Shown piece after piece: positions 1 through 59,782 of a stretch of DNA of 64,000 bases. This DNA comes from an uncultured Acidobacteriota bacterium (GTDB lineage: Bacteria; Acidobacteriota; Vicinamibacteria; Fen-336): the NCBI GenBank assembly GCA_964561785.1, contig CAZLRF010000009.1, forward strand, positions 41,686 to 105,685, in the 5' to 3' direction. The position numbers and the translations under genes are program-made. Position 1 is the stretch's first letter. Every line of letters begins with the position of its first letter. The notes below the pieces were generated by a model, which worked only from the letters and a program-made list of their open reading frames with translations, was not told the origin of the DNA and did not search any database.

Positions 1-374
1 TGGGCTTTCGGACGGTCGTGAACATGCGCTCGGCGCGGGAGGGGCCGGAGGGGGAGGGAGACGCGGTCGAGGCGCAGGGTCTGCGCTACGTCTCGGTTCC
101 GGTCACGCCCGAGAGCTTCTCCCTCGCCGACGTCGAGGCGGTCGAGAGGGTGCTGGCAGACCCCGCGTCGGGCCCCGTCCTGCTGCACTGCAGCTCCTCG
201 AACCGGGTGGGCGGCGTCTGGGCCGTGCTCGAGTCGCGCCGGGGCCGCAGCCCCGAGGAGGCGCTGGCCGCCGGCCGGGCGGCCGGGCTGCACAGCCCCC
301 CGATGGAGGCGGCCGTCCGACGCCTCCTCGGGCTTCCCGAGCCGGCGGCGGTGTCTCCGCCCGTGAACCCCTGA
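1..374 (+). CDS. TIGR01244/DUF442-like phosphatase-fold (rhodanese/DSP-like) protein, 5'-truncated at window edge
   Basis: C-terminal segment GLRYVSVPV...GPVLLHCSSSNRVGGVW matches the conserved HC(X)nR P-loop region of DUF442 sulfur-transferase/phosphatase-like proteins. The frame is open back to position 3, so the N-terminus lies upstream of the window. Confidence 0.5.
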   Translation, partial: GFRTVVNMRSAREGPEGEGDAVEAQGLRYVSVPVTPESFSLADVEAVERVLADPASGPVLLHCSSSNRVGGVWAVLESRRGRSPEEALAAGRAAGLHSPPMEAAVRRLLGLPEPAAVSPPVNP

Positions 375-416
375 GCCGCCCGGGAGGCTCTCACCGGTGA
401 GAAAGGCGGAAGCGAC

Positions 417-506
417 ATGGACGGCTGGCTCGGTCCCCTCCTGATCCTCGGCGGCTGGATCGCCCTGCAGACGTGGGTCCTGCCCCGCCTCGGGGTCCCC
501 ACCTGA
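417..506 (+). CDS. possible 29-aa hydrophobic small membrane peptide (MDGWLGPLLILGGWIALQTWVLPRLGVPT)
   Basis: ATG 417 preceded by purine-rich aaaggcggaag; single TM-like peptide in otherwise empty 260-bp gap; not in ORF track (too short). Confidence 0.2.
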   Translation: MDGWLGPLLILGGWIALQTWVLPRLGVPT

Positions 507-635
507 GCCGTGCCCCAGCCGCGCCGGGGCGCGCGGAAGGACGACGAGACCTCCCCCGACGGAAAGGAGCGCTGACGTGGCCGAGATCGGCATCCGAAGG
601 ACCCTGCTGCGCCGCGTGATCGAGGCCCTGTAGCC

Positions 636-1166
636 TTGGGGGGCGTGGAGGCGGAGATTCTCCTCCGGGTCCACGCCCTGTCGACCCCCGCTCTCGACGC
701 GGCCGCCCGGGTCGGATGGGCCCTCGGCGTGCTCCGTCTGTGCGCCCCGTTCGTCCTCGCCCTGGTGGCCTGGCACCTGCGGCGCGGAGAGCGCCGGGAG
801 GCCGCCGCCTGGCTCGGGGTGGGTGCCGCGGCGGCCGTCGTGCCGGAGCTGCTCAAGGCCGCGGTGGCGCGGCCCCGGCCCGCCCTGTGGCCCTGGCTCA
901 TCCCCACCTCCGGCTGGTCCTTCCCGAGCGGCCACGCCGTCGCGGGGACGGCGCTGTACCCGCTGCTCGGGTGGCTGGCCCTGCGGGGCCGCGGCCTCGG
1001 GGCCTGGGGCTACGCGGCGGGGTTCCTCGTCGGCGTGTTCATCGGCCTCTCGAGGCTGTACGTCGGCGTCCACTGGCCGAGCGACGTCCTCGCGGGCTGG
1101 GCGATCGGAGTTGTGCTCAGCGGCGTCGCGGTCGGCCGCCTTGACAGCTCTCCCCGGACCCTCTAG
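636..1166 (+). CDS. PAP2-family phosphatase (phosphatidic acid phosphatase type 2 / undecaprenyl-diphosphatase-like), membrane
   Basis: PAP2 motifs KAAVARPRP (KxxxxxxRP), PSGH, SRLYVGVHWPSD (SRxxxxxHxxxD); multiple TM helices. Confidence 0.8.
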   Translation: MGGVEAEILLRVHALSTPALDAAARVGWALGVLRLCAPFVLALVAWHLRRGERREAAAWLGVGAAAAVVPELLKAAVARPRPALWPWLIPTSGWSFPSGHAVAGTALYPLLGWLALRGRGLGAWGYAAGFLVGVFIGLSRLYVGVHWPSDVLAGWAIGVVLSGVAVGRLDSSPRTL

Positions 1167-1348
1167 AGTCGTGGATCTCGGGGAAGTCGGCACCATGACA
1201 CCGCGCGCGAACACGGCTCTTCGGTCGGATCGCGGCGGAGCCGTGTGCCGCTGGCGTCCCGTGTTCCATTACCGGCACCCGTAGCGGCGGCCCCGGAGGG
1301 GACCGCCGCGACCGGAGCGGGTTCCCTGGGGATGCGGACGCGGGCCGA

Positions 1349-1381
1349 GAAAGCCTCTCCAGGAGACCTGGAGGGGCTTTC
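1349..1381 (+). promoter_or_regulatory. 15-bp RNA hairpin (one G-U pair, 3-nt loop) containing AGGAGA immediately 5' of the supraoperon start codon
   Basis: GAAAGCCTCTCCAGG-aga-CCTGGAGGGGCTTTC ends 1 nt before GTG 1382; SD-like AGGAGA (1361-1366) lies at stem top/loop. Confidence 0.35.
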
Positions 1382-2872
1382 GTGCTTCTGGGCGGCAGGA
1401 CGGCGATCGCAGTCAGCCTGACCGAGGAGACGACCGCTGCGGTCGTCGACCGGATGGCCGAGCTGCGCGACGCGGCCGACCTGTTCGAGGTGCGGGCCGA
1501 CTTCGTGCGCGACCTCGACCTCTCCGCCCTGCTGCGGGCGCGGACGAGGCCGATCCTCCTCACGTGCCGCCCCGAGTCCGAGGGCGGGCGCTTTCCGGAC
1601 CGCGAGGCGTCGGCCCGCCGCCGCGTCCTCGCCGAGGCGGTCGAGCGGGGATTCGACCTCGTCGACCTCGAGGCGCGCGCGGGCTGCGACGACGTGGCCG
1701 CCGCGAAGGTGGGGCGAGGGCTCGTGCTCTCGTGGCACGATTTCGAGGGCACCCCGGACGACCTCGATTCGCTCTACGACCGGATGGCCGCGTCGCGCCC
1801 CGACGTCGTGAAGATCGCGGTCACCGCGCGCTCGATCGCCGACCTCGCCCGGCTGCTCGCGTTCGCCTCCCGCCACGCGTCGGGGCCGGGCCCGCGGCTC
1901 GTGGCCCTTTCGATGGGGCCGCTGGGTGTCGCCTCGCGGGTCCTCGGGGGCCGGCTCGGGGCCCCCTTCACGTTCGCGGCCCCCTCGGCGGGCCGGGAGT
2001 CGGCCCCGGGGCAGCTCACGGCACGCGCCCTCGCCGAGACGTACCGCGTGCGCTCGATCGGGCCCTCGACCCGCGTCTACGGCCTCCTCGGCTCGGACGT
2101 CCTGCGCAGCCTGTCCCCGGCCATCCAGAATCGCGCCTTCGCCGCGACGGGCACGGACGCGGTCTACGTTCCCCTGCAGGCGGAGTCGCTCGAGGCGTTC
2201 GACGAGGCCCTGCCCGCGCTCTCCCTCTCGGGCTTCAGCGTCACTCGCCCCTACAAGACCCGGATCCTCGATCGCCTCGCCCGCGTCACGGACGACGCGG
2301 CGGAGGCGGGCTCGGCCAACACGGTCGTCGTGCAGGAGGGCCGGCTCGCCGGGCTCAGCACCGACGGGGACGGCGTCCTCGTGCCCCTGCGGAAACGGAT
2401 CGAGCCGGCGGGCCGCACCGTGGTCGTCCTCGGCGCGGGGGGAGCCGCGCGGGCGGCGGCGTTCGCCCTCGCCCGGGCCGGGGCGCGCGTGAGCGTCCTC
2501 GCCCGCCGGGTCGAGCAGGCGCGGGAGGTCGCGGCGGGGGTCCGCGGCGAGGCGGGGGCGCTCGACGCCCTGTCCCGCATCGGGTGGGACGTGCTCGTGA
2601 ACGCGACGCCGGTCGGCTCCGGGGCACTCCCGGGCGCGTGCCCGGTGCCGCCGTCGGCGATTCGGCCGGGCACCGTCGTCTTCGACATGGTGTACGAGCC
2701 GCGGGAGACGCCGCTGCTCCTCGCGGCCCGGGCCGCGGGCTGCGCGACGATCGACGGCGTCGAGATGCTGGTGGCGCAGGCGGTGGGGCAGTTCGAGGCG
2801 TGGACCGGCCGGAGGGCGCCGGTCGAGGCCATGACCGAGGCGGCGACGGCCGCGCTCGCGGAGGAGAGATGA
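1382..2872 (+). CDS. aroDE: bifunctional 3-dehydroquinate dehydratase (type I) / shikimate 5-dehydrogenase (AroD-AroE fusion)
   Basis: N-terminal half type I DHQase (VVKIAVTARS, SMGPLG); C-terminal half shikimate dehydrogenase (SPAIQNRAF, VTRPYK, GAGGAARA Rossmann, NATPVG). 496 aa. Confidence 0.85.
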   Translation: MLLGGRTAIAVSLTEETTAAVVDRMAELRDAADLFEVRADFVRDLDLSALLRARTRPILLTCRPESEGGRFPDREASARRRVLAEAVERGFDLVDLEARAGCDDVAAAKVGRGLVLSWHDFEGTPDDLDSLYDRMAASRPDVVKIAVTARSIADLARLLAFASRHASGPGPRLVALSMGPLGVASRVLGGRLGAPFTFAAPSAGRESAPGQLTARALAETYRVRSIGPSTRVYGLLGSDVLRSLSPAIQNRAFAATGTDAVYVPLQAESLEAFDEALPALSLSGFSVTRPYKTRILDRLARVTDDAAEAGSANTVVVQEGRLAGLSTDGDGVLVPLRKRIEPAGRTVVVLGAGGAARAAAFALARAGARVSVLARRVEQAREVAAGVRGEAGALDALSRIGWDVLVNATPVGSGALPGACPVPPSAIRPGTVVFDMVYEPRETPLLLAARAAGCATIDGVEMLVAQAVGQFEAWTGRRAPVEAMTEAATAALAEER

Positions 2873-3984
2873 ACGGGACGCACCGCCTGGCCCAGGTCCC
2901 CCCGGGGGTCCAGTGCTTCGTGGGCGCCGAGGCGCGGCGGCGCCGCCGGGTCGAGGAGACGGTCGTGTCGGTGTTCGAGGGCTGGGACTACGAGGAGATC
3001 ATCCCGCCGCTGTTCGACTACGCGGACGTCTTCGCGAGCGAGGCCCTCGCGCCCCGGACCTACTCGTTCGTGGGCCGGGACGGGAGCGTGCTCGCCCTGC
3101 GGCCGGACTTCACGAGCCTCCTCGCCAAGATCGCGGCCGGCCGCCTGCGCGACCGGCCGGCCCCGATGCGCCTGTACTACTCGGGCGAGGTCGTGCGCTA
3201 CGAGCCGGTGAAGGCCGGCCGCCAGAGCGAGCTGCACCAGATGGGGCTCGAGCACCTCGGGGGCGCGCCGCGGGCCGCCGACGCGGAGGTGCTGGCGATC
3301 GCCGCCGAGTGCCTCGAGCGCCTCGGCGCGCGCGGGTGGGTGCTCGCCCTCGGCCACGTGGGCGTCTTCGGCGGCCTCGTGCGGGGCGCCGCCCTCGAGG
3401 GCGAGCGGCTCGAGGCGCTGCGCGACCGCATCGAGTCGAAGGACCCGGCCGGGGTGCGCGCGGTCCTCGAGGGGACCGGCCTCGGACCGCCCGTCGCGGT
3501 CGCGCTCGAGCGGCTCGGCGCGATGGCGGGCGGGACCGACGTCCTCGACGAGGCCGCGCGAGCGTTCGCGTTCTGCCCCCCGGCCGCGGCCGCCGTCGAC
3601 GAGCTGCGGGACGTCGTCGAGGCCCTCGGCGCCGCCCATCTCGGCGAGCGCCTCGCGATCGATCTCGCGGAGGTGCGCGGCCTCGACTACTACACGGGCC
3701 TCGTCTTCCGCGTCTTCGCGCCCGACCTCGGCTTCGAGGTCGGGGGCGGGGGACGCTACGACGCGCTGCTCGCCCGCTTCGGGCGCCCGCTCGGCGCGGT
3801 GGGCTTCATGCTCGGCCTGGACCGGGTGGCCCTCCTCCTCGAGCGCCAGGGCGTCGCGTCCGAGGGGGCGAACGCGCCGGCGGAGACAATCGCGGGGACG
3901 GACCTCGGCGCCTCTCTCGCCGTGGCGCGCGCGAGGCGCGCGGCGGGTGTCCGCGTCCGCTTCGGGAACGGGGGACCGCGGTGA
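2869..3984 (+). CDS. hisZ: ATP phosphoribosyltransferase regulatory subunit HisZ (HisRS paralogue)
   Basis: Class II aaRS-like core (LRPDFT, YYSGEVVRYE, GGGGRYDAL) without anticodon domain; ATG 2869 overlaps aroDE stop (ATGA). Confidence 0.85.
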   Translation: MNGTHRLAQVPPGVQCFVGAEARRRRRVEETVVSVFEGWDYEEIIPPLFDYADVFASEALAPRTYSFVGRDGSVLALRPDFTSLLAKIAAGRLRDRPAPMRLYYSGEVVRYEPVKAGRQSELHQMGLEHLGGAPRAADAEVLAIAAECLERLGARGWVLALGHVGVFGGLVRGAALEGERLEALRDRIESKDPAGVRAVLEGTGLGPPVAVALERLGAMAGGTDVLDEAARAFAFCPPAAAAVDELRDVVEALGAAHLGERLAIDLAEVRGLDYYTGLVFRVFAPDLGFEVGGGGRYDALLARFGRPLGAVGFMLGLDRVALLLERQGVASEGANAPAETIAGTDLGASLAVARARRAAGVRVRFGNGGPR

Positions 3985-4598
3985 GCCTCACCGTCGCCCT
4001 CTCGAAGGGCAAGCTCCTCGCCGGCTCCGAGGCGCTCTTCCGCCGGGCCGGGCTCGCCTTCCCCGACCTCGACGGCCGCCGGCTCGTCGTGCCGGCGGGC
4101 GACCTGCGCTTCCTGTTCGTGAAGGACATGGACGTGCCCACCTACGTCGAGTACGGGGTCGCCGACTGCGGGATCGCCGGCCGCGACGTCCTGCTCGAGA
4201 CGGGGGCCGACGTCCTCGAGCCGCTCGACCTCGGCTTCGGCCGCTGCCGGCTCGTGGTGGCGAGCCCGGCCGGCTCGGGCTTCGCCCCCGACCGGGCGTC
4301 GACCACCCGCGTCGCGAGCAAGTACGCGAGGGTGGCCGCCGACCACTTCCTCGGGCGGGGGCTGGCGGTCGAGGTGGTGCGCCTAGCGGGGTCGGTCGAG
4401 ATCGCCCCCGGCCTCGGCCTCGCCGACTGCATCGTGGACGTGGTCGAGACCGGTCGCACGCTCGCCGAGAACGGCCTCGAGGTCGTCGAGACCGTGGCCG
4501 AGTCCTCAGCCCGTCTCGTCGTCAACCGCGCGAGCTTCCACGCCCGCCGCGCGGACGTGCAGGGTCTCGTCGAGGCCCTGCGGAGGGCCTCGCGATGA
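3981..4598 (+). CDS. hisG: ATP phosphoribosyltransferase, short form HisG
   Basis: ~205 aa short HisG (LTVALSKGKL, DLGFGRCRLVVA, DVVETGRTL); GTG 3981 overlaps hisZ stop (GTGA). Confidence 0.88.
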   Translation: MSLTVALSKGKLLAGSEALFRRAGLAFPDLDGRRLVVPAGDLRFLFVKDMDVPTYVEYGVADCGIAGRDVLLETGADVLEPLDLGFGRCRLVVASPAGSGFAPDRASTTRVASKYARVAADHFLGRGLAVEVVRLAGSVEIAPGLGLADCIVDVVETGRTLAENGLEVVETVAESSARLVVNRASFHARRADVQGLVEALRRASR

Positions 4599-5887
4599 GA
4601 ACGCTGTCCTACGGCACCGACGCCTGGAGGCGCTGGCTCGCCCGACTGCCCCGCTCGAGCGCGCCCCGCGGCGAGGCGCTGCGCGCGGCGGAGGGGATCC
4701 TGCGCTCCGTCCGCCGGGACGGCGACGCCGCCCTCGTGCGCCTGACCGCGCGCTTCGACGGCGTGCGCCTGTCCGCCCGCGAGCTGCGCGTGCCGCCCGC
4801 CGAGGTGCGCTCGCTCGCCGCGCGGGCCGACCCCCGCGTCGTCCGGGCGCTGCGCGCGATGGCCCGCCGGATCGAGGCCTTCCACCGCCGCCAGCTCGAC
4901 CCCGGCTTCCGCCTCCGTCTCCCCGACGGGTCCGTGCTCGAGGAGCTCGCGCGGCCGCTCGCCTCGGCCGGCCTCTACGTCCCCGGCGGCGCCGGGGCGT
5001 ACCCCTCCTCCGTCCTCATGAACGCGATCCCCGCGCGCGTGGCGGGCGTGCCCCGGGTCGTCGTCGCGACGCCTCCCCGCACGCTCGAGGAGAACCCGGC
5101 GGTCGCGGCCGCGATCCTCGTGGCCGGCGTCGAGCGCGACGTCTTCCGCCTCGGCGGCGCGCAGGCGGTGGCCGCGCTCGCGTACGGCACGCGGACGGTG
5201 CCGGCCGTCGACGTGATCGTCGGCCCCGGCAACGCCTACGTGGCGGCGGCCAAGCGGCTCGTGCGCGGGCAGGTCGCGATCGACAGCGAGGCGGGGCCGA
5301 GCGAGGTGGCGATCCTGGCCGACGACACCGCCGACCCCGGCTGGGTGGCGGCGGACCTCCTCGCCCAGGCCGAGCACGGCAGCGGCGACGAGACGGTGGT
5401 GCTCGTCACCCCGTCGCGCGACCTCGCGACGGAAGCCACGCGGCTCGTGGCCCTCGGCCTGCCGTCCGTGGCGAACGCGGCCCGGGCGCGCCGGGCGCTC
5501 GCCCGCAACGGCGCGGCCGTCCTGGTGAGCGATCTCGAGGAGGGGCTGGCCGCCGTCAACGCCCTCGCCCCCGAGCACGTCGAGGTGATCACCCGGGGGG
5601 CCGCGCGACTGGCCCGACGCGTCGTGGGGGGCGCCGTCTTCGTCGGCCCCCACGCGCCCGTGGCGGTGGGCGACTACGGCGTCGGTCCCAACCACGTGCT
5701 GCCGACCGGGGGCGCGGCGCGCTTCGCCTCGCCGCTCTCCGTCCGCGACTTCCAGCGTCGGCAGAGCCTCGTGACCCTGACCCGCCGCGGCCTCGCCCGG
5801 GTGGCCGAGGACGCGGTCCGCGTGGCGATGGCCGAGGGCTTCCGCGGCCACGCGCAGAGCGTGCTCACGCGCTTCGAGGGGGAGTGA
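4595..5887 (+). CDS. hisD: histidinol dehydrogenase
   Basis: Full-length similarity to HisD (GLYVPGG, VDVIVGPGNAYVAAAK, AQAEHG, HVLPTGG); ATGA overlap with hisG. Confidence 0.92.
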   Translation: MRTLSYGTDAWRRWLARLPRSSAPRGEALRAAEGILRSVRRDGDAALVRLTARFDGVRLSARELRVPPAEVRSLAARADPRVVRALRAMARRIEAFHRRQLDPGFRLRLPDGSVLEELARPLASAGLYVPGGAGAYPSSVLMNAIPARVAGVPRVVVATPPRTLEENPAVAAAILVAGVERDVFRLGGAQAVAALAYGTRTVPAVDVIVGPGNAYVAAAKRLVRGQVAIDSEAGPSEVAILADDTADPGWVAADLLAQAEHGSGDETVVLVTPSRDLATEATRLVALGLPSVANAARARRALARNGAAVLVSDLEEGLAAVNALAPEHVEVITRGAARLARRVVGGAVFVGPHAPVAVGDYGVGPNHVLPTGGAARFASPLSVRDFQRRQSLVTLTRRGLARVAEDAVRVAMAEGFRGHAQSVLTRFEGE

Positions 5888-7005
5888 TGGACCCGCTGCG
5901 CCACGTGAAGCCGGCGGTGCGGGCCCAGAAGGCCTACACCCTCGCCCTGCGCGAGGCCCCGGTCAAGCTCAACCAGAACGAGAACCCGTGGGACCTCCCG
6001 GAGGCCTTCAAGCGGCGAGTCCTCGAGAGAGCGCTCCTGCGGCCGTGGTCCCGCTACCCCGACTTCGACCCGAGGGAGCTCCTCGCGGCGCTCGCCGGTT
6101 TCTCGGGCTGGAGGGCGGACGGGATCCTCGCCGGCAACGGCTCGAACGAGCTCATCGAGGCGCTGCTCCTCGTGACCGTCTCTCCCGGCACGAGGGTCGT
6201 CATCCCGCAGCCGACCTTCACCCTGTACTCCTCGATGACGACGATCCTCGGCGGCGAGCCGGCCTTCGTGCCGCTGCGGCGAGAGCCTCCCGACGGCGGG
6301 TTCGCCTACGACGTCGGGGAGCTCCTCGCCGCGCGCGAGGCGAGCCGCGCGTCGGTCACCATCGTCTGCTCGCCCAACAACCCCACCGGCACGAGCCTCC
6401 CCCTCGCCGACGTCGAGCGGCTGTGCGCCGCGAACGACTCGCTGGTGGTCGTCGACGAGGCCTACCACGAGTTCTGCGGGCGATCCGCGGTCCCCCTCCT
6501 GGAGCGACACCCGAACCTCGTCGTCCTGCGCACCTTCTCGAAGGCGATGGCGCTCGCCGGGCTCCGGGTCGGATACCTGCTCGCCTCGCCCGACCTCGTG
6601 CGCGAGGTGAACAAGGCGCGCCTGCCCTACAACGTCAACTTCTTCTCGCAGGCCGCGGCCATCGCGGCGATCGAGGAGTACGAGGCGGTGCTCGCGCCGA
6701 CCGTGCGCGCCCTGGCGGCGGAGCGGGAGCGGCTCCTGTCCCGGCTCGCCGACGTGCCGGGGGTCCGGGCCCACGCCTCGGACGCGAACTTCTTCCTGCT
6801 CGAGCTGACGGGCGCCGACCCCGGGGCCGTCTTCGCCTCGCTCCTGCGCCGGGGCGTGCTCGTGCGCGACGTGACGTCGTACCCGATGCTCTCCTCGTTC
6901 CTGCGCGTGAGCGTGGGGTCCGCGGAGGAGAACGACGCCTTCCTGCGCGCCCTGGGGACGGCTCTCACGGAGGCCGGCATGGATCTCACGACGGGGAGGG
7001 CCTGA
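5884..7005 (+). CDS. hisC: histidinol-phosphate aminotransferase
   Basis: Class II PLP aminotransferase (KLNQNENP, CSPNNPTG, RTFSKAMALAGLRVGY); start overlaps hisD stop. Confidence 0.9.
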   Translation: MMDPLRHVKPAVRAQKAYTLALREAPVKLNQNENPWDLPEAFKRRVLERALLRPWSRYPDFDPRELLAALAGFSGWRADGILAGNGSNELIEALLLVTVSPGTRVVIPQPTFTLYSSMTTILGGEPAFVPLRREPPDGGFAYDVGELLAAREASRASVTIVCSPNNPTGTSLPLADVERLCAANDSLVVVDEAYHEFCGRSAVPLLERHPNLVVLRTFSKAMALAGLRVGYLLASPDLVREVNKARLPYNVNFFSQAAAIAAIEEYEAVLAPTVRALAAERERLLSRLADVPGVRAHASDANFFLLELTGADPGAVFASLLRRGVLVRDVTSYPMLSSFLRVSVGSAEENDAFLRALGTALTEAGMDLTTGRA

Positions 7006-7625
7006 TGGCGACGAAGCGCCGGACGGAGCGCACGCAGCGGCCGAGGCGGGCCCGGATCGAGCGAAGGACGCGCGAGACCGACATCGTCCTGTCGCTCGAC
7101 CTCGACGGCGCAGGACGGGCACGGGCGAGGACCGGGGTCGGCTTCCTCGACCACATGCTCGGCGCCCTCGCCACCCACGCGCGGCTCGACCTCGACGTGC
7201 GCTGCAAGGGCGACCTCCACGTGGACGCCCACCACTCGGTCGAGGACGTGGGCATCGCGCTCGGCCAGGCGCTCCGGGAGGCGCTCGGGGACAAGCGCGG
7301 GATCGTCCGCTTCGGCCACGCCTACGTGCCGCTCGACGAGGCGCTGTGCCGGGCGGTCGTCGACCTCTCCGGCCGGCCGTGGCTCCACTTCGGCGCGCAG
7401 TTCCGGGCGCAGAGGATCGGGGACATGCCGACCGAGCTGTTCGAGGACTTCTTCTGGGCGCTCGTCGACCACGGGCGCTTCAACCTGCACCTCGACGTCG
7501 TGCGGGGGCGCAACTCGCACCACGTCGCGGAGGCGCTCTTCAAGGCGACGGCGCGGGCGCTCCGCCTGGCCGTCTCGCGCGACCCCCGGGTCGCGGGCGT
7601 CCCGTCCACCAAGGGGAGCCTGTAG
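7005..7625 (+). CDS. hisB: imidazoleglycerol-phosphate dehydratase (monofunctional)
   Basis: IGPD motifs (GVGFLDHML, DLHVDAHH, HHVAEALFKA); 206 aa with no fused HAD phosphatase domain; ATG shares 1 nt with hisC TGA. Confidence 0.9.
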   Translation: MATKRRTERTQRPRRARIERRTRETDIVLSLDLDGAGRARARTGVGFLDHMLGALATHARLDLDVRCKGDLHVDAHHSVEDVGIALGQALREALGDKRGIVRFGHAYVPLDEALCRAVVDLSGRPWLHFGAQFRAQRIGDMPTELFEDFFWALVDHGRFNLHLDVVRGRNSHHVAEALFKATARALRLAVSRDPRVAGVPSTKGSL

Positions 7626-7628
7626 CGC

Positions 7629-8252
7629 ATGATCGCGATCGCCGACTACGGCATCGGCAACCTCGGCAGCGTCACCAAGGCCTTCCGCCGCGCGGGGGCG
7701 GAGGTCGCGCTCGTGGGCGACGTCGACCGGCTGCGCCTCGCGGACGCGCTCGTCCTGCCCGGGGACGGCGCGTTCGCGGCCACGATGGGCGAGATCGAGG
7801 CGCGCGGGCTCGTCCCCGTGCTGCGGGAGGCGGCCGCGGCGGGGAAGCCTCTCCTCGGCATCTGCATCGGGATGCAGGTTCTCTTCGAGGAGAGCGAGGA
7901 GCACGGCCGCCACCGGGGGCTCGGCCTGCTGCCCGGCCGCGTCGTGCGCTTCGACGGCGAGCTTCCGGTGCCCCACATGGGGTGGAACCGGCTGCGGGCG
8001 CGGCGGGCGCACCCGATCCTCGACCCGGTGCCGGACGGCGCCCACGTCTACTTCGTCCACTCCTACTGGTGCGACGCCGCGGACGACGTGGTGGTCGCGA
8101 CGTCGGACTACGGCCGCGACTTTCCGGCCGTGGTCGCACGCGGCAGCGTCCTCGGCCTGCAGTTCCACCCCGAGAAGAGCCAGGACGTGGGGCAGCGCAT
8201 GGTGGAGGCCTTCGTGCAGATCGTGAGGGCGGCGAGGAGGACGGCGGCATGA
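7629..8252 (+). CDS. hisH: imidazole glycerol phosphate synthase, glutamine amidotransferase subunit
   Basis: GATase1 (LGICIGMQ nucleophile elbow, FHPEKS). Confidence 0.92.
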
Positions 8253-8986
8253 TCGTGGTTCCCGCGATCGACATCCGGAAGGGCCGGGTCGTACGCCTGC
8301 GCCAGGGCCGGGCCGAGGAGGAGACGGTGTACGGCTCGCACCCGGCGGAGGCCGCGCGCCGCTGGGAGGCCGAGGGGGCCGCGCGCCTCCACGTCGTCGA
8401 CCTCGACGCGGCCATCGAGGGGATGAGCCAGACCGACGCGATCGCGGCGGTGGTGCAGGCGGTGCGCATCCCGGTCGAGGTGGGCGGCGGGGTGAGGAGG
8501 CTGGCCGACGCCCGGCAGCTCAGGGACCTCGGCGTCGAGCGCGTGATCTTCGGGACGGCCGCGGTGTCCCGCCCGGAGGAGGTGCAGGCCGCGGTCTCGC
8601 ACTTCCCGGAGGCGGTGGCGGTGGCCATCGACGCCCGCGACGGCCGGGTGGCGGTGGCGGGCTGGAACGAGACGACGGACGTCGACGCGCTCGAGCTCGC
8701 CGCCACCGTCGAGAGCTGGGGCGTGGTGCGGGTCCAGTTCACCGACATCCGGCGCGACGGCACCCTCGTCGGGCCGAACCTCGAGGCGATCGAGGCGCTC
8801 GGCCGCAGGACCGGCCTTCGGGTCACCGCCGCCGGCGGCGTCTCGGACGTGCGGGACCTCGTCCGCCTCGCCGAGCTCGAGCCGTTCGGGGTCGACGAGG
8901 CAATCGTGGGCAAGGCCCTCTACGAGGGGCGGGTGACGCTCGCCGGGGCGCGGCGGGCCCTCGCCGAGGGGGAGGCGACGCGCTGA
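8249..8986 (+). CDS. hisA: 1-(5-phosphoribosyl)-5-[(5-phosphoribosylamino)methylideneamino]imidazole-4-carboxamide isomerase
   Basis: HisA/HisF TIM barrel ([23 protein letters not shown]); ATGA overlap with hisH. Confidence 0.9.
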
Positions 8987-9776
8987 TGCTCGCGAAGCGG
9001 CTCATTCCCTGCCTCGACGTCGACCGCGGCCGCGTGGTGAAGGGCGTGCGCTTCGTGTCCCTGCGCGACGCGGGCGACCCCGTGGAGGCGGCGGTGCGCT
9101 ACGACCTCGAGGGCGCGGACGAGCTGGTCTTCCTCGACATCACCGCCTCCTCCGACGCGCGGCCGATCGTGCTCGACATGGTGCGCCGCGTGGCGGACGC
9201 GGTCTACCTGCCGTTCACCGTGGGCGGAGGCGTGCGCGCGGTGGAGGACGCCGAGGCGCTGCTGCGGGCCGGCGCGGACAAGGTGGCGGTCAACACCGCG
9301 GCGGTCGACGAGCCGGCGCGGCTCGAGGATCTCTCGCGCCGCTTCGGGTCGCAGGCGGTCGTCCTCGCGATCGACGCGCGCTCGACCGGGCGCGGCGGGT
9401 GGGAGGTGTTCGTGCACGGCGGACGCACGCCCACCGGCCGGGACGCCGTCGAGTGGGCGCGGGAGGGGACGGCGCGGGGCGCGGGCGAGATCCTGCTCAC
9501 CAGCATGGACCGGGACGGGACGAAGGACGGCTTCGACGTGGCGCTCGTCCGGGCAGTGGCCGACGCCGTGCGTGTGCCGGTCGTGGCCTCGGGCGGCTGC
9601 GGCAGCGTCGCCCACATGGCCGAGGCCTTCACGCAGGGGCGGGCGAGCGCGGCGCTCGCCGCCTCCGTCTTCCACTTCGGCGAGATCCGGATCCCCGAGG
9701 CGAAGAGGGAGCTGCTCGCCCTCGGCGTGCCGGTGCGGCCCCCGGCGGAGCCGCCAGCGGCGGCGGGAGGCCGGTG

Positions 9777-9777
<1 letters not shown>
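8986..9777 (+). CDS. hisF: imidazole glycerol phosphate synthase, cyclase subunit
   Basis: HisF motifs ([30 protein letters not shown]). Confidence 0.92.
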
Positions 9778-14197
<4,420 letters not shown>

Positions 14198-14201
<4 letters not shown>

Positions 14202-14851
14202 GCCGGCTCTTCGTGAAGGTCTGCGGTATCACGTCGCCCGAGGACGCGGCGCTCGCGGCCGAGGCGGGGGCCGACGCGGTCGGCCTCGTCTTCTGGCGGA
14301 AGAGCCCGCGGGCGGTGACCGTCGAGGCGGCCCGGAGGATCGGCGAGGCCCTGCCGCCCTCGGTGGTGCGCGTCGGCGTCTTCGTGGACGCCTCCCGGGA
14401 CGAGATGGCGCGGGCGGCCGACGCCGCCTCTCTCGACCTGCTGCAGCTGCACGGGGACGAGCCCCCCGAGGCGTGCGAGGGCCTGCCGCGCCGGGCGTGG
14501 AAGGCGCTGCGCGTGGGCGAGGGCTTCGCGCCGGAGGACGCGCGGCGCTACGAGGGCCGCGTGGCGGGGATCCTCCTCGACACCGGCGGCGGCGAGCCCG
14601 GGGGCACCGGCCGCGCGTTCGACTGGTCGCTCGCACGGGGCGTGCGCGAGCGGGCCCGCTTCCTCGTGCTCGCGGGCGGCCTCGGGCCCGACAACGTCCG
14701 CAACGCCGTCGCGGCCGTGCGTCCCGACGGCGTCGACGCGTCGAGCCGCCTGGAGAGAGAGCCGGGGCGGAAGGACCCCGCGAAGGTGAGGGCGTTCGTG
14801 CAGGCGGCGCGCGCCGCGACGGCGGACCCCGGGGAGGACGAGGAGGCATGA
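14198..14851 (+). CDS. trpF: phosphoribosylanthranilate isomerase
   Basis: PRAI ([33 protein letters not shown]); GTGA overlap. Confidence 0.88.
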
Positions 14852-16155
14852 GCACGGCACGGCACGCGGGCGTCTGGCCCGACGCAGCGGGGCGCTTCGG
14901 GCCCTACGGCGGGCGCTACGTCCCCGAGACCCTCATGGAGCCGCTGCGCGAGCTCGAGGAGGCGTATGCCTCCGCCCGCCGCGACCCCGGCTTCGAGGCG
15001 GAGCTGCAGAGGCTGCTGCGCGACTACGTGGGCCGGCCGACGCCTCTCGGCCTCGCCGCGCGGCTGTCGGAGCGCCTCGGCTGCCGGGTCTGGATGAAGC
15101 GCGAGGACCTCTGCCACACCGGCGCTCACAAGATCAACAACGCGCTCGGCCAGGCGCTCCTCGTGAAGCGGATGGGAAAGACGCGGGTCGTGGCCGAGAC
15201 CGGGGCCGGCCAGCACGGCGTCGCCACCGCCACCGTCTGCGCGCTGCTCGGGCTCGAGTGCGTCGTCTACATGGGCACCGAGGACATCGCCCGCCAGGCC
15301 CCGAACGTGAAGCGCATGCGGCTCCTCGGGGCGGAGGTGCGCGGCGTCGACTCGGGCACGCGCACGCTGAAGGACGCGATCAACGAGGCGATGCGCGACT
15401 GGGTCACGAACGTGCGCACGACCCACTACCTCCTCGGCTCCGTCCTCGGCTCGCACCCGTACCCGGCCATGGTGCGGGACTTCCAGGCGGTGATCGGCCG
15501 CGAGGCCCGCGCGCAGGTCCTCGAGGCGGACGGCCGTCTGCCCGACCTGCTGGTCGCCTGCGTGGGCGGCGGCTCGAACGCGATCGGCCTCTTCTTCGCC
15601 TTCCTCGAGGACGGGGGCGTGCGGATGGTGGGGGTCGAGGCGGGCGGGCGCGGGACGCGGCCCGGCGAGCACGCCGCGCGCTTCCTCGCCGAAGACGGAT
15701 CCGGGGCCGGCGTGGGCGTTCTCCAGGGCACCCGGACGTACCTCCTGCAGGACGCGGCCGGCAACGTGCTCGCGACCCACTCGGTCTCGGCCGGCCTCGA
15801 CTACCCGGCGGTGGGCCCCGAGCACGCGCTGCTGCACGACGAGGGTCGGGTCGAGTACGCCGCGGCGAGCGACGAGGAGGCCCTCGCCGCCTTCCACCTC
15901 CTGGGCGAGACCGAGGGCGTGCTGCCCGCCCTCGAGTCGGCTCACGCGGTGGCCTGGCTCGTCCGCGAGGCCAAGTCCCTCGCCGGCCGGACGGTCGTCC
16001 TCAACCTCAGCGGGAGAGGCGACAAAGATCTGGGGATACTCGAGCTCGAAGCCAAGCGACGCCACGGCAATCCAGGGGGGTCTGGGGGGATGGAGTCCCC
16101 CCAGAACAAGGAAGCCGGCACCGGCCTGGGCTTCGATGGTCGCAAGTCCCGATGA
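14848..16155 (+). CDS. trpB: tryptophan synthase beta chain, with ~30-aa low-complexity C-terminal extension
   Basis: PLP-dependent TrpB ([30 protein letters not shown]) followed by a Gly/Pro-rich tail ([14 protein letters not shown]...). ATGA overlap with trpF. Confidence 0.9.
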
Positions 16156-16200
16156 TCTTCGCTCACCCCACCCGGTGCACGGCTGCTTCGGAGGACTGAG

Positions 16201-16629
16201 ATGAAGCGCACGAACGTCAAGGGGAACAGCCCCTACGAGCCGATCGTCGGCTACTCGCGGGCGGTGCGCGTCGGGGCGCACGTGGTCGTGGCCGGCACCA
16301 CCGCCACCGGCGAGGACGGGAAGATCGTGGGCAGGGGCGACGCCTACGCCCAGGCCGTGCAGTGCTTCCGCAACATCGAGAGGGCCCTGCACGAGGCGGG
16401 GGCCAACTTCCGCGACGTGGTGCGCACGCGCATGTACGTGACCGACATCTCGCGCTGGGAGGCGGTGGGGCGCGCCCACGGCCAGATCTTCCGCGACATC
16501 CGGCCCGCGGCCACGATGGTGGAGGTGAGCCGCCTCGTGGACCCCGACATGCTGGTCGAGATCGAGGTCGAGGCGGTGGTGGGGGAGGACACGACGCAGC
16601 GCCTGCCGAAGAAGGGAGTGGGCCGGTGA
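16201..16629 (+). CDS. ridA: RidA/YjgF/TdcF-family reactive-intermediate (enamine/imine) deaminase-like protein
   Basis: 142 aa with the YjgF fold signature ([47 protein letters not shown]). Inserted between trpB and trpA. Confidence 0.7.
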
Positions 16630-16657
16630 GGGTCTCGACGCGGGAGGCCCGCTAGCG

Positions 16658-17434
16658 ATGGGCCGCATCGGGGCGCGCTTCGCGCGGAGGAGGGCCGAGG
16701 GGAAGCCGGCCTTCGTGGCGTTCCTGACCGCCGGCGACCCCTCGCTCGACGGCACGGTCGAGGCCGCGGTCGCCCTCGACGCGGCGGGCGCCGACGTCCT
16801 CGAGCTCGGGGTGCCGTTCTCCGACCCGCTGGCCGACGGGCCGGTCATCCAGCGCTCGAGCGAGCGGGCCCTCGCACGCGGCGTCACCCTCGAGGGCGTC
16901 CTCGGCGCGGTGCGGCGGATCCGCGAGCGGAGCGAGCTGCCGCTGCTGCTGTTCAGCTACGTGAACCCGCTCCTGCAGTACGGCCTCGAGCGCCTGGCCC
17001 GGGACGCGAAGGCGGCGGGAGCGGACGGGGCGCTGGTGACGGACCTCCCGCCGGAGGAGGCCGGGGAGTGGATCCCCGCCGCGCGCGCGGCGGACCTCGA
17101 CACGGTCTTCCTCGCCTCGCCCACGAGCCCGCCGGAGCGGCTGCGCCTCGTCGCGGAGGCGAGCCGCGGGTTCGTCTACGCGATCAGCCGGACGGGCGTG
17201 ACGGGGGAGCGCCAGGCGCTCTCGGCCGACGCCCGGCCGCTCGTCGAGCGGCTGCGGGCGCTCACGGACGTGCCGGTCGCGCTGGGCTTCGGCATCGGGA
17301 CCCCGGAGCAGGTGCGCGAGGCGGCGGCGGTGGCGGACGGGGTCGTGGTCGGGAGCGCGCTCGTGCGCTTCCTGGAGGAGCACCCGGAGGGGGACCTCGG
17401 GGCTCGGGTGAGATGGCTGACGAGCACGACATAG
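16658..17434 (+). CDS. trpA: tryptophan synthase alpha chain
   Basis: TrpA TIM barrel (FVAFLTAGDP, LELGVPFSDPLADGPVIQ, GFGIGT). Confidence 0.9.
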   Translation: MGRIGARFARRRAEGKPAFVAFLTAGDPSLDGTVEAAVALDAAGADVLELGVPFSDPLADGPVIQRSSERALARGVTLEGVLGAVRRIRERSELPLLLFSYVNPLLQYGLERLARDAKAAGADGALVTDLPPEEAGEWIPAARAADLDTVFLASPTSPPERLRLVAEASRGFVYAISRTGVTGERQALSADARPLVERLRALTDVPVALGFGIGTPEQVREAAAVADGVVVGSALVRFLEEHPEGDLGARVRWLTSTT

Positions 17435-17859
17435 GCGGGAAGACGGACCGGCCGCCGAAGATCCCCGCGCGGCCCGCGCCCCCGGGCGCCACGGCCGCGG
17501 AGGCGGTCCGCCCCGAAGAGGGAGCGGCCTCCCGCGGTGCGGCCCAGGTGGGCGAGCTGCGCCGGCGGATCGACCAGATCGACGATCAGCTCATGAAGCT
17601 GCTGAACGCGCGCTCGGCGTGCGCGGTGGAGATCGGGCGGATCAAGCGCCGGATCGGGATGGCGGTCTACCAGCCCGAGCGGGAGAAGTGGATCCTCGAA
17701 CGAGCCGAGCGCAACAACCCCGGCCCGCTCGACGCGAGCGCGGTGCGGCGGGTGTTCGAGCGCGTGATCGACGAGAGCCGTCGCCTCGAGCGCCTGGCCG
17801 GCGAGGCCGAGGCGCGCGGCGCGGCGGACGCGGCGGCGGAGCCCCCGGGCGAGCGGTAG
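17413..17859 (+). CDS. aroQ: chorismate mutase (AroQ class) with Pro/Ala-rich N-terminal extension
   Basis: AroQ helix motifs (LRRRIDQIDDQLMKLLNARSACAVEIGRIK, YQPEREKWILER). ATG 17413 overlaps trpA by 22 nt; an internal GTG near 17548 would give a canonical ~100-aa enzyme. Confidence 0.7.
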   Translation: MADEHDIGGKTDRPPKIPARPAPPGATAAEAVRPEEGAASRGAAQVGELRRRIDQIDDQLMKLLNARSACAVEIGRIKRRIGMAVYQPEREKWILERAERNNPGPLDASAVRRVFERVIDESRRLERLAGEAEARGAADAAAEPPGER

Positions 17860-17872
17860 GGAAGGAGACGAG

Positions 17873-18910
17873 GTGTCCATGGTCATCGTGATGGAGCATA
17901 CGGCCAGCGAGGAGAACGTCCAGAGGGTCATCGAGTCGCTGGTCGAGGCGGGCTACGACGTCCACCGCTCGAGCGGCGTCGACTTCACCGTCCTCGGCGC
18001 GGTGGGGGTCCCCACGCGGCCCGTCGACCCGAGGCTCGTCGAGGTCCTGCCCGGCGTGCGCGAGGTCGTCCGCGTCTCCGAGCCCTACAAGCTCGCCGGC
18101 CGCACGTTCAAGCCCGAGGACACGGTGGTCGACGTGGGGGGGGTCGGGGTGGGCGGGCCGGAGGTGATCGTCATGGCCGGACCCTGCTCGGTCGAGGGCC
18201 CGGACCAGGTGGGGGCGGTGGCGCGCTCGGTCGCCGCGTCGGGCGCGCGCGTGCTCCGCGGGGGCGCCTTCAAGCCCCGGACGTCGCCCTACTCCTTCCA
18301 GGGCCACGGCGAAGCGGCGCTCGGGTGGATGCGCGCCGCGGCCGACGCGAACGGCATGGCGGTGGTGAGCGAGGTCATGGACCCCCGGCAGATCGAGATG
18401 ATGATGCGCCACGTCGACTGCCTGCAGGTTGGTGCCCGCAACATGCAGAACTTCGAGCTGCTGAAGGAGCTCGGCCGCGTGCGCAAGCCGGTCCTCCTCA
18501 AGCGCGGCCTCTCCGCGACCATCGAGGAGTGGCTCCTCTCCGCGGAGTACGTGCTCTCCGGGGGGAACGGCCAGGTGATCCTGTGCGAGCGCGGGATCCG
18601 CACCTTCGAGAGCTACACCCGCAACACGCTCGACATCTCCGCGATCCCGGTGGTGAAGAAGCGGAGCCACCTGCCGATCGTGGTCGACCCGAGCCACGGC
18701 ACCGGCCGGCGCGAGAAGGTCATCCCCATGGCCCGGGCCGCGGTCGCGGCGGGCGCCGACGGCCTCCTGATCGAGGTCCACGACAACCCCGAGAAGGCCC
18801 TCTCCGACGGCCCCCAGAGCCTCTACCCCGACCAGTTCGACCGGCTCATGGGGGAGCTGCGGATCATCGCCCCTGTCCTCGGGCGGTCCATTCCCCTCGC
18901 GCGGGGCTGA
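17873..18910 (+). CDS. 3-deoxy-7-phosphoheptulonate (DAHP) synthase, class I-beta, with N-terminal ferredoxin-like regulatory domain
   Basis: KDO8PS-like catalytic core (VMAGPCSVEG, KPRTSPYSFQG, VVDPSHGTG) preceded by a ~70-aa FL/ACT-like domain, as in the Thermotoga-type allosteric enzyme. Strong SD GGAAGGAGA upstream. Confidence 0.85.
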   Translation: MSMVIVMEHTASEENVQRVIESLVEAGYDVHRSSGVDFTVLGAVGVPTRPVDPRLVEVLPGVREVVRVSEPYKLAGRTFKPEDTVVDVGGVGVGGPEVIVMAGPCSVEGPDQVGAVARSVAASGARVLRGGAFKPRTSPYSFQGHGEAALGWMRAAADANGMAVVSEVMDPRQIEMMMRHVDCLQVGARNMQNFELLKELGRVRKPVLLKRGLSATIEEWLLSAEYVLSGGNGQVILCERGIRTFESYTRNTLDISAIPVVKKRSHLPIVVDPSHGTGRREKVIPMARAAVAAGADGLLIEVHDNPEKALSDGPQSLYPDQFDRLMGELRIIAPVLGRSIPLARG

Positions 18911-18922
18911 CCCCCGGGGGTC
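18909..18922. repeat. 14-nt perfect palindrome GACCCCCGGGGGTC overlapping the DAHP synthase stop codon
   Basis: Self-complementary sequence between convergent genes; no loop and no U-tract. Confidence 0.3.
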
Positions 18923-18986
18923 GCGGTCGCCGAGGACGGGGGCGCGCGGCACCTCGTCGAGCGTCCTCCGAAGCACGCCCGCCCGA

Positions 18987-20057
18987 CTAGGCCACGCGCC
19001 CCGGCCCGCCGCTCGGCAGGCGCAGCTCCACCCGGAACTCCGATACGCCCGGCCGCGCCTCGACGAGCGCGCCGTCGCCGTGCAGGGCGGCGAGCCGGCG
19101 CCTGACGTTCTGCAGGCCGATCCCGGTGCCCTTCCGTGCCGGGGCGTCGGGATCACGCGGGTTGGTGACCGCGATCCGCAGCTCGTCCCCCCGCCGCGCG
19201 GCCTCGATGCGGATCTCGCCGCCGTCGAGCCGCTGGGCGATGCCGTGGGTGACCGCGTTCTCGACGAGGGGCTGGAGGAGGAGGGGGGGGACCGGGCAGG
19301 CCCGCGCCGCCTCGTCGGCCGCCACCGTGTGCGAGAGCCGCTCGCCGAAGCGCACCTTCTCGATCGCGAGCAGCTGCAGGGCGAGGTCGAGCTCCTCGGC
19401 GAGGGGGATCGACTCGCGGGCGCCCACGGTGAGGCTGCGGCGGAGGAAGTCGGCGAGCCCCACGCACAGCCGCCGCGCCTCCTCCGGCCGCGAGGCGATG
19501 AGGGCGTTGATCGAGTTGAGGCTGTTGAAGAGGAAGTGGGGGTGGATCTGCGCCCGCAGCGCGCGCAGCTCCGCCTCGCGCGAGGCGATCTCGAGCTCGA
19601 GGGCCCTCCGCTCGGCCGCCTGCGACGCGCCGAGCGCGAGGAGCAGGTAGTGCAGCGCGGAGGTCAGCAGGAAGAGGGCCACCCCGAGGCCGAGGAGGAG
19701 GGGCGCCGTCTCCAGCTGCCGGGCGAGGAGGCCGGGGAAGACGTCGAGGCGGTCGAGGAGGGACGCCCACGCGCGGGCGGCGGCCAGCCAGAGGACGGCG
19801 GAGACGGAAGCGGCGACGAGCTGGGCGCCCAGCGAGCGGAGGAGGCGCGAGAGGCGGAGCGGGGCGGCCTGGCACACCCAGAACGCGCCGAGGCCGACGA
19901 AGCCGAACACCAGCGCGAGGGGCACGGCGAAGACGAGCGCCTCCGTCCACGCGAACGGGGCGGCGAGCACGAGCTGCCCCCCGACCAGAGCGCCGACGAG
20001 CGCCCACGCGGCGAGGTAGGCCCCGAACCGGCGCCAGTCGGCGAGGATCGGGTGCAT
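18987..20057 (-). CDS. LytS/YehU-family sensor histidine kinase (membrane)
   Basis: N-terminal TM helices; His_kinase (PF06580-type) H-box HPHFLFNSLNSINALI; HATPase_c G-box GTGIGLQNVRRRL. Confidence 0.8.
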   Translation of the reverse strand: MHPILADWRRFGAYLAAWALVGALVGGQLVLAAPFAWTEALVFAVPLALVFGFVGLGAFWVCQAAPLRLSRLLRSLGAQLVAASVSAVLWLAAARAWASLLDRLDVFPGLLARQLETAPLLLGLGVALFLLTSALHYLLLALGASQAAERRALELEIASREAELRALRAQIHPHFLFNSLNSINALIASRPEEARRLCVGLADFLRRSLTVGARESIPLAEELDLALQLLAIEKVRFGERLSHTVAADEAARACPVPPLLLQPLVENAVTHGIAQRLDGGEIRIEAARRGDELRIAVTNPRDPDAPARKGTGIGLQNVRRRLAALHGDGALVEARPGVSEFRVELRLPSGGPGRVA

Positions 20058-58352: not shown

Positions 58353-58355
58353 GGC

Positions 58356-59735: not shown

Positions 59736-59782
59736 GGCGCGCCCCTTCCTGCGGCGAGTATAGTCTCGCGCCCCGCGGCGGC

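Follow-up and report, generated by a model that had tools for sequence, protein, structure and literature searches.

We examined a 64,000-nucleotide stretch of DNA (the window; positions 41,686 to 105,685 of contig CAZLRF010000009.1) from an uncultured Acidobacteriota bacterium of the class Vicinamibacteria, in which genes for histidine, tryptophan and common aromatic biosynthesis follow one another on the plus strand. Nineteen genes make up this block, from aroDE to a DAHP synthase gene, and directly upstream of aroDE we identified a promoter-like site, a short open reading frame (ORF) and a set of conserved RNA helices. Comparison with related genomes makes it likely that the 19 genes form one operon, with a single promoter at 1141-1169, gated by a leader-peptide transcription attenuator at 1195-1381. 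With less assurance, though still on balance, we favour the view that the leader works as a four-input OR gate, its Trp, His, Phe and Tyr codons controlling the whole 17.5-kb operon; no functional leader-peptide attenuator would then have been described from Acidobacteriota before it, and none from any group that links histidine to the aromatic amino acids. Leader-peptide attenuation is a textbook mechanism, known almost wholly from Proteobacteria and Actinobacteria and from single pathways. Both it and the supraoperon are familiar kinds of arrangement, and what appears to be new here is the candidate four-amino-acid attenuator.

The regulatory region (1141-1381) includes an untranslated stretch of ~210 nt before aroDE. 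Its promoter-like site (Table 1) is well kept, TTGAC(N)-16..18-TAnnnT being found no more than 110 nt ahead of the leader start in 64 of the 69 distinct upstream regions from related loci. Downstream of it lies the leader ORF. We detected the leader module in 14 genome loci and in ~55 metagenome loci; the latter come from 80 loci found by alignment to AroDE, 65 of which had usable upstream regions, most of them with the module. While the leader peptides range from 14 to 34 residues and are hypervariable in their N-terminal sequence, every tail has a Trp codon and, after it, clustered codons for His, Phe and Tyr (for example ...CRWRPVFHYWHP; MRIERWRPTFHHHRHYS; MFRWRRTHHHHRIYA; VNCWRPVHHHHHHG; ...HRWRPIYYYRYRD; ...FHWRGIFYFYHRHQ). 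Among 39 distinct peptides, W, H, F and Y account for 49.8% of the last 12 residues, compared with 8.6% in the proteins of the window and 4.3% in the N-terminal parts of the same peptides, figures that carry a bias in that the candidate ORFs were chosen by the same composition that is then counted. The chosen ORFs nevertheless align mutually at TGG-CG and TAG anchors. Trp is present in all 39 peptides, His in 38 (at least two in 37) and Phe or Tyr in 33. As read from the printed alignment, the leader stop is TAG in 65 of 67 sequences, and gap lengths are divisible by 3 inside the ORF but not downstream of it; such codon-sized indels indicate that the leader ORF is translated. The codon set also matches the products of the genes that follow: His for the his genes, Trp for the trp genes, and Phe and Tyr for chorismate mutase, DAHP synthase and AroDE. 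At 1273-1275 the window has an Arg codon, CGG, in place of the Trp codon TGG of almost all close relatives, giving ...FHYRHP rather than ...FHYWHP, and for this reason the window leader keeps a single Trp codon.

Since the gene upstream of the leader varies between relatives while the leader stays with aroDE, the module belongs to aroDE. We rejected on the same ground the idea that its hairpin serves as the terminator of the upstream gene.

The leader RNA folds better than shuffled sequences (z = -3.67). RNAalifold on 15 genome leaders returned three helices: one between segments A and D (A:D), an apex hairpin (1284-1309) and a terminator hairpin (1350-1380). In these 15 sequences the terminating fold is 93.4% paired, compared with 37-53% in slid controls, and contains 10 compensatory pairs against 4.0 +/- 1.6 in shuffles, none of 500 reaching that number. 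To the same effect, in 67 distinct leaders, for which the MAFFT alignment took no account of structure, 88.3% of the fold is paired (40-59% when slid), with 61 compensatory cells against 30.9 +/- 4.2 and again 0 of 500 shuffles as high. Helix A:D, whose 5′ arm lies within the regulatory codons, is 84% paired in the 67 leaders and shows compensatory change in 6 of 12 pairs; it explains the near-invariance of CGN-CCN in the TGG-CGN-CCN (W-R-P) stretch of the leaders. The apex stem varies in sequence and length among relatives and is kept through compensatory changes. Terminator E:F is 98% paired, with G-C/A-U and U-A/C-G swaps, and its motif occurs once in the window. Between apex hairpin and terminator lies a box, GGGTTCCCTGGGGATGCGGACG, that is kept in all leaders. 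RNAalifold on the 67-sequence alignment recovers the terminator alone; we tested the helices by explicit column pairs because the variable apex region is misaligned there. A further helix, C:D (apex 3′ arm with GGGUUCC), suggested by RNAalifold on 20 sequences, was dropped: in the 67 sequences it is 76.5% paired, against 79.2% when slid by one column.

A candidate antiterminator, D:E, shares bases with both helix A:D and the terminator. It can pair in 97% of cells, compared with 42-73% when the partner is slid, and the pairing is compatible with the data but unproven. In minimum free energy (MFE) folds the terminator forms in 66 of 67 full-length leaders; masking the leader ORF leads to pairing of the terminator 5′ arm with segment D in 63 of the 67.

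Taken together, these elements suggest the following scheme. A ribosome would translate the 29-codon ORF as RNA polymerase moves along the leader. Were Trp-, His-, Phe- or Tyr-tRNA to become scarce, the ribosome would stall on W-R-P-V-F-H-Y-R-H and cover segment A, freeing segment D to pair with the terminator 5′ arm (CCUGGGGA with UCUCCAGG); no terminator would then form, and polymerase would read through into aroDE and the 18 genes behind it. With all four amino acids plentiful, the ribosome would depart, A:D would pair, the terminator would form and transcription would stop. In the window lineage the same hairpin would also bury the aroDE Shine-Dalgarno (SD) sequence. Within the operon, 4-nt and 1-nt overlaps together with SD-like motifs would couple translation from gene to gene, and feedback at the enzyme level would be added by HisZ/HisG and by the regulatory domain of DAHP synthase.

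The position of the SD sequence bears on a different explanation, in which the hairpin acts mainly on translation: it would hide the aroDE SD and start, and stalling in the leader would open it, with no termination involved. In the window and its nearest relatives, GGAGG at 1370-1374 does lie in the 3′ arm of the hairpin and a single base separates the stem from the GTG start; because the start abuts the hairpin, the U-tract is interrupted there (UUUCGUGCUUCU), and a terminator scan missed the window hairpin. Deeper relatives (L018, L024, L025, L030 and many metagenome loci), however, have a canonical TTTTTT after the hairpin and, as read from the printed sequences, an aroDE start ~15-50 nt further on. 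With a clean U-tract and a more distant start codon in these loci, it is termination that appears to be the conserved function, and translational and termination modes can coexist. We consider it unlikely that the hairpin works mainly on translation, but likely that the window lineage has a translational component, given that the aroDE start lies against the hairpin, the U-tract is interrupted and the SD is inside the stem.

The near-invariance of W-R-P and the highly structured leader RNA might also be expected of a protein- or metabolite-binding RNA (riboswitch, T-box-like or TRAP-like), or of an arrest peptide, invariant in its W-R-P core, that responds to a free ligand, the codons being incidental. 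We regard this as very improbable. Rfam gave no match at gathering score in the whole window, and at E values up to 10 the region 1100-1450 gave only chance hairpin matches to unrelated families, so the leader belongs to neither of the curated His and Trp leader families, and known leader, T-box and riboswitch families were rejected. Helix A:D already accounts for the conservation of CGN-CCN, the number and kind of regulatory codons are kept although the length and N-terminus of the peptide are hypervariable, and the codon-sized indels speak for translation. We retain attenuation by the leader peptide as the preferred reading of the region.

The gene block that this attenuator would govern was defined with a frame plot of G+C at third codon positions (GC3), in-frame start/stop analysis and a separate crude gene caller, since at a G+C content of ~75% raw ORF lists of the window are full of spurious frames. 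The three agree on plus-strand ORFs without interruption from 1382 to 18910, and matches to NCBIfam and Pfam give the order aroDE-hisZGDCBHAF-IE-trpE-GD-C-F-B-rid-A-CM-DAHPS (CM, chorismate mutase; DAHPS, DAHP synthase). An earlier first-pass annotation of the window had described a 17.5-kb his-trp-aro run of 20 genes. The run is real and every gene it named was identified by NCBIfam, but we found 19 ORFs, and a Rid/YjgF-family gene between trpB and trpA had been overlooked. Two starts are available for chorismate mutase, ATG at 17413 (a 22-nt overlap with trpA) and GTG at 17548; the GC3 frame signal begins at ~17401. DAHP synthase aligned end to end, regulatory domain included, with the Thermotoga maritima enzyme (1RZM/1VR6/3PG9), so that its earlier description as allosteric is a fair one by homology.

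Table 1. Regulatory elements and genes of the his-trp-aro block, in window coordinates.
Feature	Position	Strand	Basis or remark
Sigma-70-like promoter (TTGACA 1141-1146, 17-nt spacer, TAGAGT 1164-1169)	1141-1169	+	consensus scan
Leader ORF, 29 codons, MTPRANTALRSDRGGAVCRWRPVFHYRHP, stop TAG	1195-1284	+	ORF analysis; orthologues in ~70 related loci
Leader regulatory codons	Trp 1252-1254, Phe 1264-1266, His 1267-1269, Tyr 1270-1272, His 1276-1278	+	
Segment A, 5′ arm of anti-antiterminator helix, CGTCCCGTGTTCCA, within regulatory codons	1255-1268	+	pairs with 1327-1340
Apex hairpin B:C, GCGGCGGCCCC-GGA-GGGGACCGCCGC	1284-1309	+	begins at last base of TAG stop
Segment D	1325-1340	+	CCTGGGGA (1325-1332) can pair with terminator 5′ arm; 1327-1340 pairs with segment A
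Candidate antiterminator D:E, CCUGGGGA with UCUCCAGG	1325-1332 with 1356-1363		paired segments CCTGGGGA / TCTCCAGG
Terminator hairpin E:F, 14-bp, AAAGCCTCTCCAGG-AGA-CCTGGAGGGGCTTT, then TTTCGTGCTTCT	1350-1380	+	
aroDE (type I 3-dehydroquinate dehydratase fused to shikimate dehydrogenase)	1382-2872	+	TIGR01093 residues 9-220, TIGR00507 residues 232-492
his block	2869-10388	+	NCBIfam equivalog matches
hisZ	2869-3984	+	NCBIfam
hisG, short form	3981-4598	+	NCBIfam
hisD	4595-5887	+	NCBIfam
hisC	5884-7005	+	NCBIfam
hisB, dehydratase (IGPD) domain only	7005-7625	+	NCBIfam
hisH	7629-8252	+	NCBIfam
hisA	8249-8986	+	TIGR00007 above cutoff; hisA-trpF model TIGR01919 below cutoff
hisF	8986-9777	+	NCBIfam
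hisIE	9774-10388	+	NCBIfam
trp block, first part	10385-16155	+	NCBIfam
trpE	10385-11833	+	NCBIfam; overlaps hisIE by 4 nt
trpGD	11830-13395	+	NCBIfam
trpC	13392-14201	+	NCBIfam
trpF	14198-14851	+	NF002298 at 8e-68
trpB	14848-16155	+	NCBIfam
Rid/YjgF-family gene	16201-16629	+	PF01042 at 2.3e-31; TIGR00004 below cutoff
trpA	16658-17434	+	TIGR00262 at 2.2e-80
AroQ-type chorismate mutase, start uncertain	17413-17859	+	TIGR01807 residues 48-119
Type I-beta DAHP synthase with N-terminal regulatory domain (Thermotoga type)	17873-18910	+	NF006421 residues 3-339

To follow the block among relatives, we scanned with the TrpE protein, taking one genome per species (73 loci), and compared synteny by tblastn. 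The closest loci, at 90-91% TrpE identity, are metagenome-assembled genomes of Vicinamibacteria/Acidobacteriota. The full gene order is kept in all 33 Vicinamibacteria-like loci, down to 65% TrpE identity, with rid variable and with gaps centred on zero, which answers the call for comparative synteny in the earlier annotation. At the hisIE-trpE junction the median gap is 5 nt and the maximum 94 nt (30 loci); this junction matters because independent promoters or terminators between the his and trp blocks had been named in the earlier annotation as what would speak against a single unit. The rid gene is confined to a closer subclade, the deeper relatives being without it. A ThiF-family (PF00899) gene of ~1 kb lies between aroDE and hisZ in 13 of the 22 loci that have both, and is absent from the window; it overlaps the aroDE stop via GTGA (for example at L016:1441-2463). 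Inserts between his genes in relatives are repeats or small unassigned ORFs, not phosphatases. One such insert, a 522-nt hisB-hisH gap at L013:6670-7185, is filled by ~3 tandem copies of a GC-rich repeat unit, visible in several frames as translated blocks that recur, and holds no gene.

More distant AroDE homologues are arranged differently. At 50-55% identity (L133, L137, L144, L147) we found no leader and no adjacent hisZ, and two further loci (L109 and L113) read aroDE-X-hisA-like-trpE, with neither a his block nor a leader ORF upstream. X is a gene of ~1 kb between aroDE and the hisA-like gene (L109:1805-6264), and the hisA-like gene might be a TrpF or PriA-type isomerase. From these loci we infer that leader and full supraoperon travel together in one clade, and the 19-gene operon appears to be characteristic of the class Vicinamibacteria. 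The adjacency of his and trp genes as such is not unique to that class, since loci labelled Actinomycetes or Actinomycetota in the same TrpE scan have hisDCBHAF(I)-trpE-C-B-A, and in single Elusimicrobiota and Omnitrophota contigs hisF adjoins trpE.

The junctions of the block are tight. Overlaps of 4 nt (ATGA/GTGA) make up ten of the 18 and overlaps of 1 nt another three, with a single 3-nt gap; the last four junctions measure +45, +28, -22 (or +113 with the alternative chorismate mutase start) and +13. The start/stop overlaps described earlier as near-universal are seen, at 4 or 1 nt, in 13 of 18 junctions. With the chosen chorismate mutase start, all 18 are overlaps or gaps of at most 45 nt, 13 of them without any intergenic DNA, and 13 of the first 14 shift the frame in the same direction, a run far beyond chance given that about one third per junction is expected. 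GGAGG-like SD motifs stand 6-14 nt before 17 of 18 internal starts. A consensus scan of the plus strand from 1 to 20000 found only one sigma-70-like promoter, at 1141-1169, where 0.1 were expected, and no internal site at the threshold that detects this 5′ promoter. Terminator-like matches inside the genes are not enriched (4, against 2.2 +/- 1.7 in shuffled sequence), and the gene after that for DAHP synthase converges from the opposite strand. The proposal of one polycistronic, translationally coupled unit thus gains from the conserved order, the near-zero gaps and the single promoter-like site, from which we infer a transcript of >17 kb; the 19 genes would on this evidence constitute one operon.

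Alternatively, the cluster could be conserved as a cluster and yet be read as several transcription units from weak internal promoters, with the leader governing no more than the 5′ part or just modulating a basal level. The block is 17.5 kb long, spacers of 45, 28 and 13 nt occur near rid, trpA and the gene for DAHP synthase, and relatives tolerate the inserts described above (the ThiF-family gene after aroDE, small ORFs and repeats between his genes). Weak internal promoters are established in the his and trp operons of E. coli and are frequent in long operons. Nevertheless, no internal site reaches the threshold of the 5′ promoter, terminator-like matches within genes do not exceed those in shuffled sequence, 13 junctions leave no intergenic DNA, and the his and trp blocks lie no more than 94 nt apart in 30 loci. 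We consider several units somewhat unlikely and keep to a single operon behind one attenuator.

Several points count against the attenuated single operon and temper our confidence in it. Most leaders have only one Trp codon. With its degenerate U-tract, termination in the window lineage may be weak. The D:E pairing is conserved in sequence with almost no compensatory change, and sequence conservation itself leaves little room for covariation. In a simulation with a sliding 30-nt ribosome mask, the terminator 5′ arm was sequestered at 0.60 with no ribosome, 0.85-0.88 with the ribosome at codons -12 to -7 and 0.72-0.76 near the stop; these MFE results go in the expected direction, discriminate only modestly and offer weak support. 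On the side of the transcript, we found no clear intrinsic terminator after 18910, weak internal promoters lie outside the reach of a consensus scan, and there would be room for such promoters in the spacers of 13-45 nt near rid, trpA and the gene for DAHP synthase. Finally, mutation of similar-looking leader ORFs before ilvB and leuA of Streptomyces coelicolor gave behaviour unlike that of a classical attenuator (PMC1262725).

The predicted leader resembles hisL and trpL of E. coli and Salmonella (His_leader and Trp_leader in Rfam) in that a short ORF with codons for the end products, which also contains an anti-antiterminator arm, stands just ahead of the first biosynthetic gene, and antiterminator and terminator hairpins are, as predicted here, mutually exclusive. 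Unlike them, it has an extra apex hairpin that starts at the stop codon, and where hisL and trpL are each devoted to one amino acid (7 His codons and 2 Trp codons, respectively), the Acidobacteriota leader mixes Trp, His, Phe and Tyr. A single leader peptide with codons for several amino acids is found in the multivalent ilvGMEDA, ilvBN and thr attenuators of E. coli. By analogy, we read the present leader as multivalent attenuation in the ilv/thr manner, in which scarcity of any one amino acid would relieve termination. The ilv and thr leaders serve the amino acids of a single branched pathway (Ile/Leu/Val or Thr/Ile), however, whereas this one would span two separate pathways, histidine and the three aromatics. 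A 2010 survey named Proteobacteria and Actinobacteria as the only groups then known to have leader-peptide systems, and stated that hardly any attenuator predicted in Acidobacteria had an assigned function (PMC2965389). In full-text literature searches we met neither a his-trp-aro operon nor an amino-acid leader peptide or attenuator described for Acidobacteria or Vicinamibacteria.

Supraoperons of trp and aro genes are documented in Bacillus subtilis, Nostoc/Anabaena and Desulfovibrio (PMC1173090), and like them the present block has a complete trp set amid common-pathway aromatic genes on one strand. The first-pass annotation had presented it as an extension of the Bacillus type, a link that holds as analogy only. 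In B. subtilis the order is aroFBH-trpEDCFBA-hisC-tyrA-aroE, with hisC the sole his-named gene; here the full hisZGDCBHAF-IE set is present, aroDE leads, chorismate mutase and DAHP synthase trail, and tyrA lies 6.8 kb downstream. Control would also differ, the Bacillus operon being regulated by the TRAP protein and not by a leader peptide, while here trpE overlaps hisIE by 4 nt and has no leader of its own between the two genes (the search did not extend to TRAP sites). Closer precedents for the his-trp linkage are the hisDCBHAF(I)-trpE-C-B-A runs in Actinomycetota-labelled loci, and trp genes near the his operon have been noted in that phylum (PMC13055916). In these Actinomycetes/Thermoleophilaceae loci, as in the window, trpE and further trp genes come after a run of his genes on one strand. 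No trpF occurs in the actinobacterial set, where the bifunctional PriA is used, and the run is also without hisZ/hisG, trpD and aro genes; in contrast, the window has everything contiguous behind a shared leader, and since both hisA and trpF are present it is not a PriA-type cluster.

The earlier suggestion of joint control becomes specific and testable with a candidate leader attenuator whose codons match the end products. Its proposed rationale, the shared consumption of phosphoribosyl pyrophosphate (PRPP), is not supported, in that the leader would sense the supply of charged tRNA for the end products and not PRPP. Comparative data suggest a version of attenuation in the abundant, little-studied soil Acidobacteria in which a single small ORF would respond jointly to the supply of four amino acids and control two PRPP-sharing pathways that are otherwise regulated separately, offering a testable case of operon fusion co-evolving with the mixing of regulatory codons. 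If this is correct, natural leader variation (W + HHHHHH; W-F-H-Y-W-H; W + YYY-Y) would form a series that tunes the relative sensitivity to each amino acid, and variants with different codon mixes would be useful for quantitative models of attenuator sensitivity. The leader could also be used as a compact, single-input regulatory part when aromatic and histidine production is engineered in high-GC hosts, and promoter-leader-terminator-aroDE as a ready annotation marker for Vicinamibacteria genomes.

TrpB has 435 residues and the TIGR00263 match stops at 396, leaving a C-terminal tail of ~39 residues outside the model, before rid. The Rid-family protein reads RPAATMVEV where E. coli RidA reads FPARSCVEV with the catalytic Arg105 at the aligned position; with Ala in place of this Arg and TIGR00004 below cutoff, we rejected its assignment as a canonical RidA.

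The lack of a histidinol-phosphate phosphatase pointed out in the first-pass annotation was borne out: Pfam found no PHP, HAD or IMPase gene in the operon or among the ~60 ORFs of the window. Directly upstream of the operon promoter are a PF04273 BLH-phosphatase-like gene (18-374, plus strand) and a PAP2 gene (636-1166, plus strand). Neither is in a known histidinol-phosphate phosphatase family, and we rejected both as members of the operon: they come before the promoter, and PAP2 is upstream only in the nearest relatives (L001, L004, L032 and L040, by tblastn).

Downstream of the DAHP synthase gene lie genes for a LytS-type histidine kinase (18987-20057) and a LiaF-like protein (20061-20756), both on the minus strand, and then an unusual fusion of Ser/Thr kinase, receiver and LytTR domains (20882-22534, plus strand). 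An ABC ATPase (23299-24072) and a membrane protein (24060-25655) precede tyrA (prephenate dehydrogenase, 25675-26415), some of the genes between it and the operon lying on the minus strand. The printed sequence of at least one relative, as read here, apparently has the ABC genes and tyrA directly after the DAHP synthase gene. The window also contains a rho gene (33869-35377, plus strand) in which Rho_N begins at residue 91, implying an N-terminal extension. On the minus strand at 57000-61027 are a short-chain fatty acid transporter (57000-58352), a beta-eliminating lyase of the tryptophanase/tyrosine phenol-lyase family (58356-59735) and an amino-acid permease (59783-61027); together these may represent an aromatic amino-acid catabolic module near the biosynthetic operon.

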